DNA of 64,000 bases, from positions 127,943-191,942 of the forward strand of contig JADFWU010000001.1 in the NCBI GenBank assembly GCA_015234045.1. The letters are read 5' to 3'. Every line of letters starts with the position of its first letter. The stretch's first letter is position 1. This DNA is from Magnetococcales bacterium (GTDB lineage Bacteria > Pseudomonadota > Magnetococcia > Magnetococcales > JADFWU01). Below, one piece after another: positions 35,537 to 44,986 of the stretch. Made by a program: the position numbers and the translations under genes. The notes under the pieces are model-generated. The model had not been told where the DNA came from and searched no databases. It saw only the letters and a list, made by a program, of their open reading frames with translations.

Positions 35537-36163
35537 CTATTTTATCAAGATGGATGCTGCCGTCCAAAGAGAGGGTACTGCCAGAACGAGGAAGAAAATA
35601 CCGCTTATTCTGTGAAGCATTTGCTCAGGGATTTTTCTAAGCAACTTACTACCAGCTACTACACCAAGAGCGGAGATAAATATCAACGCCGCTGTTCCAC
35701 CAATCCATACCGATATAGGTTCATAACCACCAGATAAAGCTGCTACGGCAATTTGGGTCTTGTCGCCAAACTCTGCCATGAAAATTAATATGAAGGTTGT
35801 TAATAGAACACTACGACCTGTCTTTTCAACAATGTCATCATCATCGTCATCATCATCATTACTACGCAACATTTGAATACCAAAGATAGCGAATAGTAAG
35901 CCTACTATTAGTGCTACTATCCACTCGGGAACCCAAGCCGCTATTGAAGCACCAAACGTCACTGCCAACAGATTGAGGATGATAAACGCCAGCGAAACAC
36001 CAATTAGCACTGGGAAACCACGGTGTCGCGCAGCCAATGTCATGCAGACAAGTTGGCTTTTGTCACCAATTTCAGCCAGCGAAATTAACGCAAATGTCGC
36101 TCCCATTATGGAAGCATTTGAAAGATTAGATTGTGAACCGGAGATAAATAATTCGATGTCCAT
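35537..36163 (-). CDS. GDT1/TMEM165 (UPF0016) family cation (Ca2+/Mn2+) transporter
   Basis: Two E-x-G-D-K-(S/T) motifs are present (AEIGDKSQL, AEFGDKTQI) in a two-repeat 6-TM protein. The central loop contains eight consecutive Asp. Confidence 0.8.
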   Translation of the reverse strand: MDIELFISGSQSNLSNASIMGATFALISLAEIGDKSQLVCMTLAARHRGFPVLIGVSLAFIILNLLAVTFGASIAAWVPEWIVALIVGLLFAIFGIQMLRSNDDDDDDDDIVEKTGRSVLLTTFILIFMAEFGDKTQIAVAALSGGYEPISVWIGGTAALIFISALGVVAGSKLLRKIPEQMLHRISGIFFLVLAVPSLWTAASILIK

Positions 36164-36452: not shown

Positions 36453-36517
36453 GATTTAAATCCGGGGACACCTTACCGATTTCCCTTGGGTATCCATCAA
36501 TAATATTTATTTATTCT
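36453..36517 (+). repeat. REP-like motif copy d (solo)
   Basis: AAATCCGGGGACACCTTACCGATTTCCCTTGG...AATAATATTTATTTATTC. It abuts or overlaps the queG stop codon. Confidence 0.6.
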
Positions 36518-37452
36518 GACCGATTTTCAATACAAATGGCTAAATTCCTCCGAAATCGCTCCAATCCAATCCGCTTCACCGGTGATTGCCTAAACCTTTC
36601 TCTAAACTGTTCATCATCAAGCTGTTGAAGTTGTTCAAGCGGTGGATTAATCAACTCTTTTCTGGGTAGAAAATCAGGATTTTCAGTAGTAGGACCAAAC
36701 CGATTAAACGGGCATGCGACAAGGCAATCATCGCAACCGTATAGCCGGTTTTTCATGGGTTTATGAAATTCTTCAGGAATGGCGCCTTGATGTTCAATGG
36801 AGAGATAGGCGAGGCATTTTGAGGCGTCCAGTTGATAGGGTGTCAGTGCTTTTGTGGGACAAGCATCAATGCAGCGGGTGCAGGTGCCGCAGTGGTCTGG
36901 GGTTGGTGGATCTGGTGGTAGGGTGATTGATAGAAACAATTCGGCCAGAAACAGCCAGCAACCGTATTGACGATTGACCAATAAAGTGTTTTTGCCTTGC
37001 CAGCCGAGACCGGCGGCAGCGGCCAGGGGTTTTTCCAGAACTGGGGCGGTGTCCACGAAAATCCGGCCTTGGATGGTTTGTCCTGTTTGGGTCTCAATCC
37101 AGCGGGCCAGACGGCGGACGCGCTTTTTTATTCGGTCATGATAATCTCGATTGCGCGCATAGGCGGAAATAATGCCGCAGGAGGGATCAGCCAGACCAGC
37201 AAGCGGATCATCCGGTGGTTTGTAGTTCGTGCCCAGCACCAGAATAGTGCCGAGATTCTCCATAAGTTGCCGTGGATCTTCACGTTTTTGACGATTACGT
37301 GTCATCCAGGACATGGAACCATGACATCCTTGATCAAGCCACGTTTGCAGATGATCATGGTGTGGGGGCGGCGCTACAGGGGCAAAAGCAGCCACTTGAA
37401 AGCCTTCCTCAAGCGCTTGTTTGCGCAACGCCTCTTTTAGTTCATGTGTCAC
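36511..37452 (-). CDS. queG: Epoxyqueuosine reductase
   Basis: Two 4Fe-4S ferredoxin motifs are present (CGTCTRCIDACP, CDDCLVACP), with a QueG-type N-terminal region. Confidence 0.85.
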   Translation of the reverse strand: MTHELKEALRKQALEEGFQVAAFAPVAPPPHHDHLQTWLDQGCHGSMSWMTRNRQKREDPRQLMENLGTILVLGTNYKPPDDPLAGLADPSCGIISAYARNRDYHDRIKKRVRRLARWIETQTGQTIQGRIFVDTAPVLEKPLAAAAGLGWQGKNTLLVNRQYGCWLFLAELFLSITLPPDPPTPDHCGTCTRCIDACPTKALTPYQLDASKCLAYLSIEHQGAIPEEFHKPMKNRLYGCDDCLVACPFNRFGPTTENPDFLPRKELINPPLEQLQQLDDEQFRERFRQSPVKRIGLERFRRNLAICIENRSE

Positions 37453-37549
37453 GTTGCTAAACTGCTCCGGTTTGTTGTCAATACCACATCAGTGCCAGTG
37501 ATGTTTATGAAGAGGCTGTGTTCAGTCTCATGACCAGGAGGAGTATCCC

Positions 37550-38647
37550 ATGTCTGAAGCCGCTCCGGTGCCTTTGGAACCCCTTTATGCACTTTCTGAT
37601 GAAGCGTTGGTTACGCGCATTGAAGCTGCCAAAAAAAGCTTGGGTGACAGCTGTGTGATTCTCGGCCACCACTATCAGCGTGAAGAAGTGTATCAATTTG
37701 CTGATCTAACCGGTGATTCATTAAAGCTTTCCCGACTGGCCCAACAACGTCCCAATGCCCGCTACATTGTTTTTTGCGGTGTTCATTTTATGGCTGAGGT
37801 GGCTGATATTCTGTCCAGCCCGGATCAAACCGCTATTCTACCCGATCTTGCCGCCGGATGCTCCATGGCGGATATGGCGGATCTTCCCGCAGTTGAAGAA
37901 GCTTGGAAAGCTTTGGGCACGGTTATTGACGTTGAGAATACGGTAACACCTGTAACTTATGTCAATTCTACCGCTGATCTGAAAGCTTTTTGTGGCGAAC
38001 ATGGTGGCACGGTGTGTACATCATCCAATGCTCAATTAGTATTGGAATGGGCTTTTTCCCAGCGAGAAAAGACGCTGTTTTTCCCAGACCAGCATTTAGG
38101 CCGCAACACAGGTTATCTAATGGATATTCCATTGGAACAGATGGTGGTTTACAAGCCCAGCGAACCCATGGGCGGTTTGACTGAACAACAGATCAAGCAG
38201 GCCAAGATTATTCTATGGGATGGGTATTGCTCAGTGCATCAGATGTTTCTACCGGAACATGTGGATTATTATCGGGAAAAATATCCAGGCATCAAAGTGA
38301 TTGTCCATCCTGAGAGTGCATTGGAGGTTTGCCAAAAAGCAGACGCTCAAGGTTCTACGGAACTGATCCAAAAAATGGTCCGGGAATCACCATCAGGCAG
38401 CCAATGGGCTGTTGGAACGGAGTTTAACTTGGTCAATCGGTTGAATCATGAGATGCCGGATAAGGATATTTTTTATCTTTGTCCGACAATCTGCATGTGT
38501 TCTACGATGTTCCGCATTGATCTCCAACATCTTTGTTGGACGTTGGAGAATCTGGTTGCCGGTCATATCGTCAATCCGATCACCGTGCCTGAGCGTGAGA
38601 CCGCATTGGCAAAGACCGCTCTTGAACGCATGCTTGCGATCATGTGA
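37550..38647 (+). CDS. nadA: Quinolinate synthase A (long form)
   Basis: FCGVHFMAE, conserved Cys ligands and overall NadA-like sequence are present. Confidence 0.9.
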   Translation: MSEAAPVPLEPLYALSDEALVTRIEAAKKSLGDSCVILGHHYQREEVYQFADLTGDSLKLSRLAQQRPNARYIVFCGVHFMAEVADILSSPDQTAILPDLAAGCSMADMADLPAVEEAWKALGTVIDVENTVTPVTYVNSTADLKAFCGEHGGTVCTSSNAQLVLEWAFSQREKTLFFPDQHLGRNTGYLMDIPLEQMVVYKPSEPMGGLTEQQIKQAKIILWDGYCSVHQMFLPEHVDYYREKYPGIKVIVHPESALEVCQKADAQGSTELIQKMVRESPSGSQWAVGTEFNLVNRLNHEMPDKDIFYLCPTICMCSTMFRIDLQHLCWTLENLVAGHIVNPITVPERETALAKTALERMLAIM

Positions 38648-38656
38648 AAATCGGTA

Positions 38657-38779
38657 ATGGCTGATTTACAACAGGCGATTGCACTGGCCGTACGCGCCCA
38701 TCACGATCAGATGGATAAGGCAGGAGCGCCTTATATAATGCATCCGCTACGCCTAATGATGCAGATGACAGACGTTTAA
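38657..38779 (+). pseudogene. Truncated N-terminal remnant (40 aa) of an HD-domain hydrolase (small alarmone hydrolase / YpgQ-like)
   Basis: Not in the supplied track. MADLQQAIALAVRAHHDQMDKAGAPYIMHPLRLMMQMTDV* carries the AH.GQ.DK.G.PYI.HPL block of HD hydrolases. It stops after 40 codons, where the family is ~180 aa. Confidence 0.45.
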
Positions 38780-38835
38780 TAAAATACCGAACTTGGTGGG
38801 AATTTCTAAAAAACATATGACACGGAGTTAATCTG

Positions 38836-40356
38836 GTGAAAGCGGGTTTCAAAGTCTTTCGGGATGCGGTGCATAACATGATCTCTCTGTGTCGGGAGAC
38901 AACAGCACCAGCCGCTGATCCGGTGGACTGGGGCGATGCGCTGCTGTTAGATCTTATTGATACACCAGAGATGCAGCGACTGCGCCGTATTCAACAATTA
39001 GGGCCTGCGTCACGGGTCTATCCTTCCGCAGAACACAGTCGATTTTCTCATGCACTGGGTGTGATGCATCTGACAAAGCGGATTCTTGATGCTTTATTGA
39101 GCCGCGAGCCTGGTCTGTTGAATCGGGAAGAGCTTCTTCAAGTCAAGGTGGCCGCCTTACTGCATGATATTGGGCATGGTCCATACTCGCATCTTTTTGA
39201 AATGAGTCATCCAAGGCTGGGTTCGCATGAGTCATGGAGTTGGCGGATTGTTTCGGAATCCAAAGGAGTCGGGCAGGCCATACACAGTTTTTGTATGGCG
39301 CGTAACCTGGATGGCGCGCGTTTTTTTCAGGGCTTGAAATCCTTGATGGGTGGTATTGAACAGCCAGCCGGAAACATGCGTTTAGGTCGGCAGATAATTG
39401 CCAGTCAGTTGGATGCTGATCGAATGGATTATCTGCTTCGAGATGCCCACTTTTCAGGTGTTTCGTACGGTGTATACGATCTTGAATGGCTATTGCACAG
39501 TCTGCGCGTGCAGCAAATGGATGGTTTGCCGAGACTCTGTGTAGATATCGGACGCGGACCCGCAGCACTGGAGAGTTACATCACCGCACGGGATCACATG
39601 TATCGTCAGGTCTATGATCATAAGACGGTACGCGCTTTTGAGGCGTTGATGACCCATATTTTCCAGACCATCTACTGGCACTGGCAGGAACACGGTCAAC
39701 CGCCGTCTGATTTGCCTGATATTCTTCACCGATTTTTGCAACATCTTCATGAAGAGCGTGATGCGCCATCAGTAGATGAGTATCTGGCATTGGATGATGC
39801 GGTGTTGGAATATGCATTGGGCATTTTGGCATCAAAAAACGATCCGCAGAGCGATACAGAAGCGGAATTGGTTTGGAAAGCGCGGCTATGGCGGGTTCGA
39901 AAGCCAGTCTATCGGCAAATATTTTGGCGCGTGGCTGGCAAAAGGGCGGAGAGTAGTCGGGTAGGCGTATCGGATCTGATCGTTGATCCACAGTTGGCCG
40001 ATCATTTGGAAACCTTTCTCAGCGCCATTGCTGATCAGACCATGAAAGTCGTTGAACCGAATGGACAAGAACGGCGTGTTCCACTGAGATTGCTGGTCTA
40101 TTTGGACCGTTTATCACGTTCGCCCTATGCCCATCTCCAGTATGATCCTGGTCAGGCGGAACCAGTCTATGTACTGGACAGTGCTGGTCAGGTGGTTCCG
40201 GCTGAGTCTGCATCCAGTCAGATCAATTTTCTCGGTCAGAATCGTCGGCGTGTTGCGCGACTGTTTGTTGATCCGCGTGCGGAGCAGGCTGTTACCATTC
40301 TGCTTCGCGAACAGCTGGGTGAACCGGACCTTTGGCCGGTGATTCCTGGATCGTGA
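38836..40356 (+). CDS. HD-superfamily phosphohydrolase, SAMHD1/COG1078-like (putative dNTP triphosphohydrolase family)
   Basis: The N-terminus FRDAVHNMISL, SRFSHALGVMHL and AALLHDIGHGPYSH (HD motif) are present, then DADRMDYLLRD. A ~300-aa C-terminal region follows. The start codon is GTG. Confidence 0.8.
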   Translation: MKAGFKVFRDAVHNMISLCRETTAPAADPVDWGDALLLDLIDTPEMQRLRRIQQLGPASRVYPSAEHSRFSHALGVMHLTKRILDALLSREPGLLNREELLQVKVAALLHDIGHGPYSHLFEMSHPRLGSHESWSWRIVSESKGVGQAIHSFCMARNLDGARFFQGLKSLMGGIEQPAGNMRLGRQIIASQLDADRMDYLLRDAHFSGVSYGVYDLEWLLHSLRVQQMDGLPRLCVDIGRGPAALESYITARDHMYRQVYDHKTVRAFEALMTHIFQTIYWHWQEHGQPPSDLPDILHRFLQHLHEERDAPSVDEYLALDDAVLEYALGILASKNDPQSDTEAELVWKARLWRVRKPVYRQIFWRVAGKRAESSRVGVSDLIVDPQLADHLETFLSAIADQTMKVVEPNGQERRVPLRLLVYLDRLSRSPYAHLQYDPGQAEPVYVLDSAGQVVPAESASSQINFLGQNRRRVARLFVDPRAEQAVTILLREQLGEPDLWPVIPGS

Positions 40357-41567
40357 AACCGTTCTCTCTCTGCATTGTCAGATTACAGCTATTTTTCAAA
40401 GGCTGTTTTGTTGGTCAATCTGGCGCGATTACACCACTGTTGCTGGCGGCTATTGCTGGCGTTGTCGGAATGATCTTACCGCTTATGCCGATTCCCATTG
40501 AGAAAAATGTACGCTACCAACTGCCGGTTGGGACTGTTATTTCATCGAATCAACTGATGGAACAGCTATCCGTAGTGCCGGTGGTTCTGGTCGGTGAGAC
40601 CCATGATCAGGTGGCGCATCACCGTGTTCAACTTGATGTGTTGAAGGGATTGCACGCGCGTGGCCAAAACATTGCCGTAGGCATGGAGATGTTCCATCGG
40701 GATCAACAATCTGTTTTAGAGGCTTGGACTGCTGGCAAGTTGAGTGAGTCGGCTTTTCTGGATCAAACCGAATGGTATTTCAACTGGGGTATGGATCCAG
40801 ATCTGTACTGGCCGATTTTGCGCTGGTTGCGTGATGAAAAAATTGATCTGTTCGCACTCAATGTGCCGAGAAACAGTATTCGCACGGTAAGAATGATGGG
40901 ATTGGAGGGGCTCTCCGAGTCTCAAAGAGAGTATATCCCACCGATCCAACCGGCCACACAATCCTATCGGAACAGGTTGCATACACTGTTTGAACAGCAT
41001 GCTGCCATGATGAAAATGGCACGCAGTAATGTGGTGTTTGACCGGTTTGTACTGGCGCAAACCGTGTGGGATGGTGTCATGGCTTCTGCTATTGTTGACT
41101 ATCGAAAACAGCATCCTGAGTCAACTGTCATTGGGTTGGTTGGTTCGGGGCATTTGCGTTTTGCTGAAGGCATACCGCATCAGCTGAAAGGATTGGGGCA
41201 ACAGGATCATAGGACGGTGTTACCATGGGGTGATGATGAGACTTGGCCAGCGCCTCAAGTCAGTGATTATATCTGGGGCGTTGTTGGTGATCTACCGTGG
41301 CCGGAACCGATACGTTTGGGAGTGGGTTTGCCTGAACAGGACGACCCGTTATCCGGCGTTGTCATTACATCGGTATCGGAAAACAGTATCGGAGAGAAAT
41401 TAGGTTTGAATGCGCAGGATCGTATTATAAAAATCAATGGAATGTCAATAACAGGCCGACACATGATGGTGCGGTTGATTCGTAGTCTGGAAGAAGATAG
41501 CGTGCTTTCCGTAACGTTCGAAAGAGAAGGTGTGCAAAACGTGAATACGCTGGAATCAATTCGGTAG
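40353..41567 (+). CDS. ChaN/Tiki-superfamily (DUF399) protein with a C-terminal PDZ domain
   Basis: VVLVGETHDQVAHHRVQ is the typical ChaN N-terminal block. The C-terminus is PDZ-like (GVVITSVSENSIGEKLGLNAQDRIIKING). A hydrophobic N-terminus is present. GTG 40353 overlaps the upstream TGA (GTGA); TTG 40332 is an alternative start. Confidence 0.6.
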   Translation: MKPFSLCIVRLQLFFKGCFVGQSGAITPLLLAAIAGVVGMILPLMPIPIEKNVRYQLPVGTVISSNQLMEQLSVVPVVLVGETHDQVAHHRVQLDVLKGLHARGQNIAVGMEMFHRDQQSVLEAWTAGKLSESAFLDQTEWYFNWGMDPDLYWPILRWLRDEKIDLFALNVPRNSIRTVRMMGLEGLSESQREYIPPIQPATQSYRNRLHTLFEQHAAMMKMARSNVVFDRFVLAQTVWDGVMASAIVDYRKQHPESTVIGLVGSGHLRFAEGIPHQLKGLGQQDHRTVLPWGDDETWPAPQVSDYIWGVVGDLPWPEPIRLGVGLPEQDDPLSGVVITSVSENSIGEKLGLNAQDRIIKINGMSITGRHMMVRLIRSLEEDSVLSVTFEREGVQNVNTLESIR

Positions 41568-41778: not shown

Positions 41779-43629
41779 ATGAAACGCTGGCTGATGTTAT
41801 TTGTCTCAGTCATCTCTGTACTGATAGGGATCTATCCGGTTATCAGTAGCAGTCAGGCGCAGACAAATGAGGATGTAAATAATCCTTATCGTTCCAGCCA
41901 TGCGTTGATTATTGGCGGGTCCAGCTATGGTGCTGGCTGGCCTACGTCCATACGATTTCGGCGAAAAATGCAGAAGTTAGGCTGGTTCCTCCATGAACAG
42001 GGATTTCGAGTCACTACTATAGAAGAACCTGTTTCTGATAATTTTGTTGAAGCATTTCACTCCTTTTTCAAAACCTTTTCCAGTCATCCTGACCACCAGA
42101 TATTGATCTATTTCGGTGGTCATAGTGTGGTGTTGCCAGATCGTGAAGAGAGTTATCTGGTGCCCATGGATGCGCCTCCACCAGATGTTGACCGTGACAC
42201 TTTTTTAAAAAAAGCGTTACCGTTTTCCAAGTTGTTCGAGTGGAGTCGTAAACTGTCTGCACGCCATGTATTGTTTGTTGTAGAGGGTCCTGTTTTTCAT
42301 GAGATTTTCCGTCGTGAACAGGGGGATCAACGTTCTCATGCGCTTGGTAGTGAATCCATGAATGCCAGTCGTGAGGTGCTTTCGCGTTTGCCAGCATTTC
42401 GGACAGAGGGAAAGCCTTTTTTAGCGGATGGATTGGTACAAGGATTAGCCGGCGGTCGTGCAGACCAGAATGGCGATGGTTATATTACCGGCGCGGAGTT
42501 GGCTTGGTATCTCAGGCAGGATCTCGGCGGTGGTTTTCCTGTCAATTATGGCCGTCTCGGAGTGGATGGCGCTTTTCCAGGGCAGTGGTTGTTCACGGTT
42601 AAAGGACCCTATGCACCCGCTGTTCAACAAACTGTAGCCGTGGTAGCAGAACAACAAACCGTTGCCCAAATAGTGCCTGAACCAACTCAGCAACAGCACC
42701 CTCTCAAGTCAACACGACCGACACCTCAACGTGTCCAGAATAACAAACCCGTTCAGGGAGGTTCCAATTCGCTGTTGGCTTCCGTACATAAAGAGGTGAG
42801 CAAAGTCCAATCCATCGCTCCTTCTCAAATGACTCAACAGGAAACAGAGCACGCTTCAAAAGTGACTCAACAGGAAACAGAGCACGCTTCAAAAGTGACT
42901 CAACAGGAAATAGAGCGCTCTTCAGCACCCAAAGTTTGGAAAGAAGCACTTACGCAGATGAGCTTCAGTTTTGCTCCTGGTGGATGTTTCTTCGTTGGTA
43001 GTCCTGTTACGGAAGTGGGCCGGGATAAAGACGAATATATTAAAGAGGTGTGTGTTGATCCATTTTGGATTGCACAACATGAGGTGACACAGGGGCAATG
43101 GAATCATTTCATGTCTGGCGACCCTTCGCGCTTGAAACTGGGGCCACAGTGGCCGGTTGATGGTGTCAGTTGGTTTCAGGCTAAGAAATTCATTGAGCTG
43201 ATGAATGATAAAACAGGTGGTGGATTTCGGCTACCAACAGAGGCCGAATGGGCGTATGCCTGTCGTCTGGGACAACAGGAGCAACGCTATGCAGGTAGTA
43301 ATACTGTAAGCCAAATTGCATGGTACGGAAAAAACAGTGCGTCAGGTCCTAAAAAGGTTGGCCGGAAACAGCCTAATGGTTTGGGATTGTTTGATATGAG
43401 TGGCAATGTCTGGGAGTGGGTTGAAGACCACTATCAGAGTGATTATTTCAAAACTGCACCGAAACATAATCCTGTTAATTTAAGTATCACTCATCGTTCA
43501 AAACGGGCTTTGCGCGGTGGCGCTTATAACAGCAAGGAAAAACATTTGCGTTGTGCAAACCGTTTCCCTTATCCACCGGAAAAATCATTAAATAGCATTG
43601 GATTTAGGTTGGCTCGGACAGTGCGATAA
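41779..43629 (+). CDS. Secreted caspase-like (peptidase C14 fold) / FGE-sulfatase (SUMF1) domain fusion protein
   Basis: A signal peptide is present. The caspase His block is ILIYFGGHS, but the expected D-x-C block reads FVVEGPVF. A Gln/Thr-rich linker carries 11-aa repeats. The C-terminal FGE-sulfatase motifs are RLPTEAEWAYACR, GNVWEWVEDHY, RGGAY and GFRLAR. Confidence 0.75.
   Translation: MKRWLMLFVSVISVLIGIYPVISSSQAQTNEDVNNPYRSSHALIIGGSSYGAGWPTSIRFRRKMQKLGWFLHEQGFRVTTIEEPVSDNFVEAFHSFFKTFSSHPDHQILIYFGGHSVVLPDREESYLVPMDAPPPDVDRDTFLKKALPFSKLFEWSRKLSARHVLFVVEGPVFHEIFRREQGDQRSHALGSESMNASREVLSRLPAFRTEGKPFLADGLVQGLAGGRADQNGDGYITGAELAWYLRQDLGGGFPVNYGRLGVDGAFPGQWLFTVKGPYAPAVQQTVAVVAEQQTVAQIVPEPTQQQHPLKSTRPTPQRVQNNKPVQGGSNSLLASVHKEVSKVQSIAPSQMTQQETEHASKVTQQETEHASKVTQQEIERSSAPKVWKEALTQMSFSFAPGGCFFVGSPVTEVGRDKDEYIKEVCVDPFWIAQHEVTQGQWNHFMSGDPSRLKLGPQWPVDGVSWFQAKKFIELMNDKTGGGFRLPTEAEWAYACRLGQQEQRYAGSNTVSQIAWYGKNSASGPKKVGRKQPNGLGLFDMSGNVWEWVEDHYQSDYFKTAPKHNPVNLSITHRSKRALRGGAYNSKEKHLRCANRFPYPPEKSLNSIGFRLARTVR
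42831..42920. repeat. Tandem 33-bp coding repeat (2.7 units)
   Basis: GACTCAACAGGAAACAGAGCACGCTTCAAAAGT occurs twice exactly, plus a diverged partial unit. It encodes TQQETEHASKV. Confidence 0.85.
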
Positions 43630-44281: not shown

Positions 44282-44986
44282 ATGTCACAGTTAAATAAAG
44301 CGGTAAACAAAACAGTAAATAAAACCGCGCGTGCGGATCCTTTTGCGGCATTTATGAAGCTTAAGGGCAAGCCGTGTTTGATGATTGGTGGACAGGGTGA
44401 GGCAGCGGATAAAATCCAGGTGCTCTTACGGGCTGGTGCGGAAGTTACACTGGTTGCCGAAACAATGAGTTCAGAGATGTCACAGGTTCTAAAAGAACAT
44501 CCGGTAAATTGGCAACAAGTACCCTTTGCTCCACACCATCTGGATGGGGTTTGGTTGGTGGTCAGCACATTGACCGATGTTGTGCAGAATCGGACGCTGT
44601 TTGAGTTGGCCAGTGAACGTCAGATTTGGCTCAATGTGGTGGATCAACCTAAGAACTGCACCATTATTTGGCCAGCATTGGTGCATCGTTCTCCGATCAC
44701 CGTTGCCATTTCAACAGGCGGTGCAAGTCCCGCTTTGGCGGGATATCTACGCGCGTTAATCGAAAACCTTATTCCTCCTTCAATGGGTGAGTTGGCTTAT
44801 TGGCTCTCTGGTTGGCGGCGGCGTGTTGGGCCGAAATTGCCGGACCTGGCAGCGCGTGGTCAATTTTGGCGCGTGTTGTTTGAAAAAGGTCTACCGGATT
44901 GCTTCCTGAACGGTGATGTGAAAAATGCAGAGAAAATGATACGAAAACAGGCGGATATCTGGTCGGTTAAACTGGATGATTCATAA
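44282..44986 (+). CDS. Precorrin-2 dehydrogenase / sirohydrochlorin ferrochelatase (siroheme synthase N-terminal domain only)
   Basis: LKGKPCLMIGGQGEAADKIQVLLRAGAEVTLVA parallels the NAD-binding N-terminus of CysG/SirC/Met8. No methyltransferase domain is present. Confidence 0.7.
   Translation: MSQLNKAVNKTVNKTARADPFAAFMKLKGKPCLMIGGQGEAADKIQVLLRAGAEVTLVAETMSSEMSQVLKEHPVNWQQVPFAPHHLDGVWLVVSTLTDVVQNRTLFELASERQIWLNVVDQPKNCTIIWPALVHRSPITVAISTGGASPALAGYLRALIENLIPPSMGELAYWLSGWRRRVGPKLPDLAARGQFWRVLFEKGLPDCFLNGDVKNAEKMIRKQADIWSVKLDDS

Follow-up and report, generated by a model that had tools for sequence, protein, structure and literature searches.

The gene at positions 41,779 to 43,629 of a 64,000-nucleotide (64-kb) stretch of Magnetococcales DNA (contig JADFWU010000001.1; "the window" below means this whole stretch) encodes a protein in which a caspase-like domain is joined by a linker to an FGE-sulfatase-like domain; we call it the caspase-FGE gene. 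On the evidence of family alignments and structure models, the caspase fold is predicted to be intact and the protease to be catalytically dead: the cysteine of the catalytic dyad has become a proline, and the codons of the lost motif still stand in the DNA, two nucleotides out of frame. We suggest, with a probability of roughly 0.6, that this is a stand-alone, lineage-specific, exported orthocaspase-FGE-like protein whose protease was killed by a compensated frameshift, and which acts, if at all, by binding.

Caspase-like domain and altered catalytic motif

Relatives of the caspase-like domain were collected by an exhaustive phmmer search with residues 29-283 as query against 1.84 billion cluster representatives (50% identity), at E <= 0.001. 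The search returned 2906 relatives, the best of them 28-37% identical, and the columns of the catalytic dyad were scored in an alignment of the 149 best cluster representatives, as well as in full-length alignments of 17 and 67 sequences.

The His block ILIYFGGHS, which had been pointed out in an earlier note made from the letters of this DNA, is present, and its H115 aligns with a histidine that is invariant in the family (149 of 149 representatives). In the Cys column the query has Pro171 (codon 42289-42291), compared with Cys in 147 of the 149 representatives, and the 17- and 67-sequence alignments likewise place proline there. The whole motif is affected: where the family reads F-D-S-C-F-S-G, the query reads V-E-G-P-V-F-H, a change at all seven positions. 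A scan of the sequence found no cysteine in residues 1-402, and there is therefore no alternative nucleophile elsewhere in register. The earlier note had read FVVEGPVF as lacking the catalytic Cys, had called the protein a likely pseudo-protease, and had named a catalytic Cys elsewhere in register as the observation that would overturn this; the explicit family alignment and the scan both bear out its reading, and the pseudo-protease stands.

The Pfam profile Peptidase_C14 (PF00656) matches residues 41-138 with 23.4 bits, compared with a cut-off of 21.4, and covers profile positions 3-102 of 233, that is, the N-terminal half of the domain only; the whole domain is backed by the family alignments, in which it aligns end to end with homologues annotated as p20 only, and by a fold search. 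An AlphaFold2 (AF2) model of the domain alone has a predicted local distance difference test score (pLDDT) of 87 and a predicted template modelling (TM) score (pTM) of 0.88, and its best Foldseek matches in the PDB are MALT1 paracaspase (E = 1e-9, TM ~0.6), caspase-9, -1 and -4, and GSU0716, a caspase-like protein of bacterial origin. What characterizes an active Peptidase C14 or orthocaspase is present here as regards the fold and the dyad His, and absent as regards the dyad Cys; a p20-homologous domain with a substituted dyad residue is what has been described as a pseudo-orthocaspase (PMC6426788), and this is what the protein has. Orthocaspases are set apart from metacaspases by having no p10 domain of the metacaspase type. 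Judged in this way, the protein should no longer be able to cleave peptide bonds. An EF-hand loop within the domain, DQNGDGYITGAEL, matches the PROSITE pattern PS00018 exactly, while Pfam does not report it; a PS00018 match occurs in 128 of the 149 representatives, counted anywhere in the protein and not localised to this loop. The loop suggests that this secreted caspase-like family binds Ca2+ and may be regulated by it, as metacaspases are.

The route by which the cysteine was lost appears to be legible in the DNA. The S-C-F-S codons TCC TGT TTT TCA are intact at 42288-42299, 2 nt out of frame, and in a three-frame translation of 42241-42423 the displaced frame reads R-G-S-C-F-S-stop at the motif site. 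In frame, the window DNA is GAG GGT CCT GTT TTT CAT GAG ATT TTC (E-G-P-V-F-H-E-I-F); at the same site, a homologue on a metagenomic contig (L013) has GAC TCC TGC TTT TCG GGT ACG GTT TTC (D-S-C-F-S-G-T-V-F). The spacing from His163 to Phe177 in the query is that of the family, and the simplest history is therefore one 2-nt gain and one 2-nt loss. We suggest an ancestor GAG TCC TGT TTT TCA GGT GAG (E-S-C-F-S-G-E) in which GG (2 nt) would have been inserted ahead of TCC and 2 nt deleted behind TCA, at exact positions that we can only infer, the two indels bracketing 12 nt. Such a compensated +2/-2 pair would have recoded (D/E)-S-C-F-S-G to E-G-P-V-F-H and left the fold, the dyad His and the EF-hand-like loop in place. 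Evolution by compensatory frameshift pairs has been documented (Biba et al. 2022, PMC8935012). As in the pairs described there, two nearby indels whose lengths are not multiples of 3 would bring the sequence back into frame and leave a short stretch recoded; unlike in those pairs, the recoded stretch would here be a catalytic motif and the outcome a pseudoenzyme, not a neutral change of sequence.

Each 5-residue window of the N-domain was swapped for its alternative-frame translation and scored with a family hidden Markov model (HMM) built without the query. The motif site came first of 749, with a gain of 14.0 bits against an average of -6.1 (standard deviation 6.0) for the variants, and the family-HMM score of the protein rises from 179.1 to 198.4 bits once SCFSG is restored. 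A second out-of-frame candidate, RESLF at residues 211-215 (+7.2 bits), did not stand out from the noise of the scan and was set aside. The strength of the argument rests on the peptide itself and not on a shuffle p-value (given below): the +2 frame of GGN CCN GTN TTY necessarily reads [STPA]-[CRSG]-[FLIV]-[SP], and the peptide GPVF is the 2-nt shadow of SCFS. By a rough estimate, the probability that independent substitutions would produce GPVF at the most conserved motif of the family is of the order of 1e-5.

The two indels could also be errors of assembly or sequencing, in which case the real gene would read E-S-C-F-S-G and encode an active secreted orthocaspase-FGE protein; within 42270-42310 the true sequence would then be GAGTCCTGTTTTTCAGGTGAG, as against the assembled GAGGGTCCTGTTTTTCATGAG. 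That a perfect family motif appears upon frame restoration, and that only one assembly exists, is in keeping with such errors. We nevertheless consider them very improbable, as they would have to be two separate 2-nt errors, 12 nt apart and exactly compensating, neither of which is a simple homopolymer miscount (GGG should be G, and GG is missing after TCA). Moreover, other conserved positions of the active-site region are changed in frame (G116S, P196A, G204L and S213P).

For the remainder of the protein, the comparison used the positions that 90% or more of 66 full-length homologues share. The caspase-like domain keeps 11 of 19 such positions, compared with 44 of 48 in the FGE-like domain, and the losses in the former cluster near the active-site region (G116S, D169E, C171P, and PVRQFITAG to ASREVLSRL). 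These eight losses would also fit a decaying relic. On this account the first indel would have abolished the product, as translation in the new frame stops at a TGA immediately behind SCFS; a chance second indel would then have opened the frame again, leaving a gene that drifts and no longer has a function. It agrees with this that the gene is a sequence singleton for which no orthologue turned up among 15 billion proteins, that it lies at a variable locus edge, and that a truncated gene remnant 3 kb upstream shows decay to occur in the region. A relic is less easily reconciled with 616 open codons behind a good Shine-Dalgarno sequence, with the conservation of the FGE-like domain, with high-confidence models of both domains, or with an EF-hand loop that still matches PS00018 exactly. 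We therefore regard it as unlikely, if far from negligible.

Several points weigh against our preferred reading, that of a compensated frameshift in a protein acting, if at all, by binding. Acceleration specific to the N-domain is not significant, both domains being divergent, with an N/C identity ratio that is the 15th lowest of 67. No orthologue exceeds about 36% identity in the N-domain, which is too distant for purifying selection to be gauged from the ratio of non-synonymous to synonymous substitution rates (dN/dS), and any continued function is therefore conjectural. The sequence is found in one assembly only, its 90%-identity cluster has a single member, and the two indels are thus read from a single sequence. 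Furthermore, an out-of-frame gain equal to that at the motif appeared in 4 of 100 synonymous-codon shuffles that kept GPVFH (p ~ 0.04). This null is conservative, because G-P-V-F can only be coded as GGN CCN GTN TTY; with GPVF itself the shadow of SCFS, only the third positions of four codons are put to the test by the shuffle, and each of them is the T that is required.

Orthologues and other strains were sought that might confirm the indels or differ in repeat number. A scan of metagenome contigs with a DNA pattern that allowed 0-4 nt at the upstream indel gave no match, the GTDB representative genomes scanned for orthologues held distant relatives only, and an exact protein look-up for other strains had no contig on record. 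A tblastn search of the window for paralogues, using five family members, matched only the gene at 41779-43629.

Layout of the gene and the FGE-like domain

The reading frame is preceded by a Shine-Dalgarno sequence, GGGGAGAG, 5 nt ahead of the ATG at 41779 and graded good. The 616-residue product is identical to NCBI entry MBF0620426.1 from a Magnetococcales metagenome-assembled genome (MAG), where it is labelled 'SUMF1/EgtB/PvdO family nonheme iron enzyme'. Its features are as follows.

41779..43629, + strand: whole open reading frame (ORF), 616 aa and stop, ATG start
41779..41856, + strand: signal-peptide-like N-terminus, aa 1-26 (MKR, hydrophobic core, SQA|Q); inspection, hydrophobicity, AF2 helix
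41890..42603, + strand: caspase-fold domain (Peptidase C14, orthocaspase-like), aa ~38-275, predicted catalytically dead; Pfam PF00656, phmmer, AF2, Foldseek
42121..42123, + strand: His115 codon, retained catalytic-dyad His; family alignment column
42286..42300, + strand: putative compensated-frameshift site, GG TCC TGT TTT TCA T; in frame G-P-V-F-H, with a 2-nt shift S-C-F-S
42463..42501, + strand: EF-hand-type loop DQNGDGYITGAEL, aa 229-241, within the caspase-like domain; PROSITE PS00018
42607..42933, + strand: disordered Q/V/S/P/A/T-rich linker, aa ~277-385; AF2 pLDDT, composition, homologue architectures
42830..42924, + strand: 33-bp tandem repeat, 2.9 copies (TQQETEHASKV twice, then TQQEIERSSA); Tandem Repeats Finder (TRF)
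42934..43626, + strand: FGE-sulfatase-fold (C-type-lectin-like) domain, complete, without the FGE catalytic Cys pair; Pfam, PDB sequence matches, Foldseek

The architecture that the earlier note had described, a caspase domain, a repeat linker and a complete FGE-sulfatase domain, agrees with Pfam, TRF, the family alignments, AF2 and Foldseek, and the AF2 model of the full protein consists of two confident domains with a disordered segment between them (residues 277-381, pLDDT < 50). The signal peptide proposed in the same note was recognised again, by inspection only: MKR followed by LMLFVSVISVLIGIYPVI and SSSQA|Q has the n-h-c arrangement of a Sec signal peptide, the highest 12-residue Kyte-Doolittle mean is 3.01, and residues 2-22 are helical in the full-length model. 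A comparable hydrophobic N-terminus is seen in 132 of the 149 family representatives. The protein is thus probably exported via Sec, although this N-terminus might also serve as an uncleaved membrane anchor.

In many homologues one or more PEGA domains stand where this protein has its disordered linker. The repeat in the linker (period 33, 95% matches by TRF) had been put down as an exact 33-bp tandem duplication; the exactness holds for copies 1 and 2 (42830-42895), which are identical, and not for copy 3, which has 3 mismatches.

The Pfam FGE-sulfatase profile (PF03781) matches residues 398-613 over profile positions 7-255 of 255, with 147 bits and E = 8e-43, so that the C-terminal domain is indeed complete, as the earlier note had it. 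In sequence, the PDB entry closest to it is TvpA, the variable protein of a diversity-generating retroelement (DGR), at E = 4e-21; FGEs, PvdO and PorK/GldK come next, and Foldseek matches its fold to PvdO, TvpA and FGE, the FGE structures at E ~ 1e-17. In a phmmer alignment to human FGE, mapped by hand, Cys336 corresponds to Ser585 and Cys341 falls in a 3-residue gap; the only cysteine kept is a structural one, C592 in the query. The domain therefore has the fold of FGE/SUMF1 and lacks the catalytic, copper-binding pair Cys336/Cys341. To our knowledge, TvpA, PvdO and PorK/GldK are also without this pair. All NCBIfam equivalogs, GldK, PvdO and EgtB among them, score far below their cut-offs. 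The absence of the pair together with these scores argues for a non-enzymatic module: instead of an FGE enzyme, the domain is most plausibly a C-type-lectin-like module for binding.

TvpA (PDB 2Y3C), PvdO (5HHA) and PorK/GldK are thus the proteins that the domain resembles most, in sequence and in fold. There are two differences: unlike PorK, the caspase-FGE protein is not a lipoprotein of the ring of the type IX secretion system (T9SS), and unlike TvpA, its gene has no DGR template repeat near it. The suggestion that the domain might be a DGR target found no support in the window, where a blastn search with the gene returned only the gene itself and its internal 33-bp repeat, and no copy of a template repeat. 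No reverse transcriptase was seen among the flanking genes scanned, a window-wide search for one not having been made.

Genomic neighbourhood

The earlier note had placed the caspase-FGE gene in an undescribed system of envelope-directed proteins together with the two genes before it, encoding an HD and a ChaN-PDZ protein; such a system might also be related to conflict or diversified by a DGR. The three genes are indeed adjacent and on the same strand. FGE/FGS domains do serve as binding modules in NTPase-linked conflict systems and in DGRs, where they are targets (PMC7159879, PMC13581612), and TvpA is the best PDB sequence match of the C-domain.

Upstream of the gene the order is QueG (on the minus strand), NadA, a 40-codon remnant, the 506-aa HD protein and the ChaN-PDZ protein, and 211 bp separate the last of these from the caspase-FGE gene. 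ChaN-PDZ orthologues are common in Magnetococcales, and four of their loci were compared, in three MAGs (L014, L015 and L017) and on one short contig. The three MAGs keep the order QueG(-)-NadA-HD-ChaN-PDZ (36511-41567 in the window); in L014 and L015 NadA is separated from HD by a small HD gene of 146-150 aa, and in L015 a cNMP-binding gene stands between HD and ChaN-PDZ. After ChaN-PDZ they have hemerythrin-HD_5 genes, a Metallophos-NACHT gene (1265 aa) or a hydrolase gene, and never the caspase-FGE gene. The fourth locus, on the short contig, has a different context.

The site just after ChaN-PDZ is variable among the Magnetococcales loci and looks like a hotspot for accessory genes. At 40332-40356 of the window, the longest ChaN-PDZ ORF, which begins with TTG, shares 25 nt with the end of the HD gene; the NCBI model of the ChaN-PDZ protein has 404 aa, and hence a later start than the longest ORF. 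In relatives the overlap of the two genes is 4 nt, which fits translational coupling of the pair.

Among more distant relatives, the neighbours of three full-length caspase-FGE homologues from other phyla include neither HD nor ChaN-PDZ genes. The first lies among acetyl-CoA synthetase-type genes and EF-G, the second near PKD/T9SS-tail proteins and an AbgT transporter, and the third in a cluster of more caspase, PEGA, FGE and DUF4384 paralogues. This last cluster, on the metagenomic contig L013 (8001-18052), contains a Peptidase_C14-PEGA-FGE-sulfatase gene, a Peptidase_C14-PEGA gene, a stand-alone FGE-sulfatase gene and a gene for Peptidase_C14 alone, and also holds two DUF4384 proteins and a sigma-70-r4-like gene. 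It suggests that in some organisms the family works as a multi-gene set.

The 506-aa HD protein is dGTPase-like, with weak matches only, among them a weak PADLOC match to dGTPase. Its N-terminus (MKAGFKVFRDAVHN...), read by eye, has no hydrophobic segment like that of a signal peptide, so that the HD protein, which had been counted among the envelope-directed ones, is probably not envelope-directed. Nor does the window provide the link to STAND NTPases that had been considered: the flanking genes scanned, within ~10 kb, include no STAND, vWA or MoxR NTPase gene, and no vWA-MoxR, STAND/NACHT or GTPase domain occurs in the protein itself or within that distance. The gene thus differs from the NTPase-linked conflict systems, whether those with FGS/caspase effectors (PMC7159879) or those with STAND sensors (PMC13581612). 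PADLOC gave no match for the caspase-FGE protein, and membership of a defence system was rejected on this ground.

With a block that is kept in three relatives without the gene, three homologues whose neighbours are unrelated, a 211-bp gap, an HD protein without a recognisable signal peptide, no template repeat in the window and no NTPase partner among the flanking genes scanned, the proposed system is largely refuted and, in our view, extremely improbable. The caspase-FGE gene is instead a stand-alone gene, specific to its lineage and added where a conserved housekeeping block has its variable edge.

The remnant in the upstream block had been noticed before as an HD-gene scar at 38657. It is a genuine gene remnant: the 40-codon ORF at 38657-38779 on the + strand (MADLQQAIALAVRAHHDQMDKAGAPYIMHPLRLMMQMTDV*) is the N-terminal part that is left of a small HD-domain protein, and by eye it can be aligned with residues 1-40 of the small HD protein that L014 and L015 have at the same position. 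The scar is unrelated to the caspase-FGE gene.

Downstream of the gene follow DUF2249 (on the minus strand), a sirohaem-synthase-like gene, Hpt proteins and a response-regulator-PAS-GGDEF gene. Of these, the sirohaem-synthase-like gene carries at its 5' end a 12-bp tandem repeat (44287-44325, + strand, 3.2 copies, 74% matches) that encodes NKAVNKTVNKT. Elsewhere in the window, at 35537-36163 on the minus strand, a cation transporter of the GDT1/UPF0016 family has nine consecutive Asp residues (NDDDDDDDDDIVEK) in the loop that connects its two repeats.

Known families and significance

The architecture itself is not new. FGE-sulfatase was listed in 2012 as the fifth commonest domain fused to bacterial metacaspase homologues (4.9%), of which only 84% have an intact dyad; those listed include a Trichodesmium Bac_PepC14|FGE-sulfatase protein with an incompletely conserved catalytic dyad (Asplund-Samuelsson et al. 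2012, PMC3501461). Metacaspase-FGE-sulfatase fusions have also been noted in archaea, and 858 of 9,994 bacterial orthocaspases (~8.6%) have substituted dyads and were termed pseudo-orthocaspases (Klemencic et al. 2019, PMC6426788). The architecture can therefore not be called undescribed, and what the earlier note had named as speaking against its own proposal, a common and already known family without linkage to the neighbouring HD and ChaN-PDZ genes, is what we find. Orthocaspase-FGE-sulfatase proteins and pseudo-orthocaspases are both known already; what is new is the legible mutational route.

The caspase-FGE protein shares with the metacaspase-FGE fusions (PMC3501461) the order of a hydrophobic N-terminus, a caspase p20-like domain and an FGE-sulfatase domain, an alignment with dozens of them over the full length (25-31% identity), the conserved His block and the EF-hand-like DGYxTGxEL loop. 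It differs from them in having Pro for Cys, with the whole FDSCFSG motif recoded, in having a disordered repeat linker in place of PEGA, and in an N-domain identity of at most about 36% to any homologue. With the pseudo-orthocaspases (PMC6426788), and with SyOC of Synechocystis (PMC7889975), it has in common a p20-type homologue with a substituted dyad, which is presumably non-proteolytic. The highlighted pseudo-orthocaspase variants have Tyr/Ser for His/Cys and their clades are mainly alphaproteobacterial and cyanobacterial (PMC6426788), whereas here the His is kept, the Cys is replaced by Pro, and the loss is isolated within a Cys-positive clade (147 of 149). A further difference is that here the mutational route, a putative compensated frameshift, can be read in the DNA.

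As to what such a protein might do, the FGE-like domain would be a module for ligand recognition, tethered by the flexible repeat linker to an inert caspase-like scaffold. If still functional, the protein would act by binding, for example as a substrate trap or as a decoy for active paralogues. We can go one step further only tentatively, and speculate that a functional exported pseudoenzyme was made in one short step, by a compensated frameshift over the catalytic motif, which would bind substrate-like peptides, and Ca2+ by way of its intact EF-hand loop, leave the peptides uncut, and, together with its lectin-like FGE domain, serve in the periplasm or at the surface as a trap, decoy or regulator.

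The significance of the finding is modest. Exported orthocaspase-FGE-sulfatase proteins form a large family that has been known since 2012, and the literature searched contained no experimental work on it. One false lead is removed, since the HD, ChaN-PDZ and caspase-FGE genes are not a system. The protein offers a clean case from nature in which an enzyme domain has become a pseudoenzyme, by what appear to be compensating frameshifts, and in which the ancestral catalytic codons can still be read out of frame; it may be useful as a teaching case and as a natural 'catalytic-dead' control for studies of the family. Should the tentative idea of a functional pseudoenzyme be true, it would be a natural dominant-negative version of a widespread, uncharacterised family of secreted orthocaspases.

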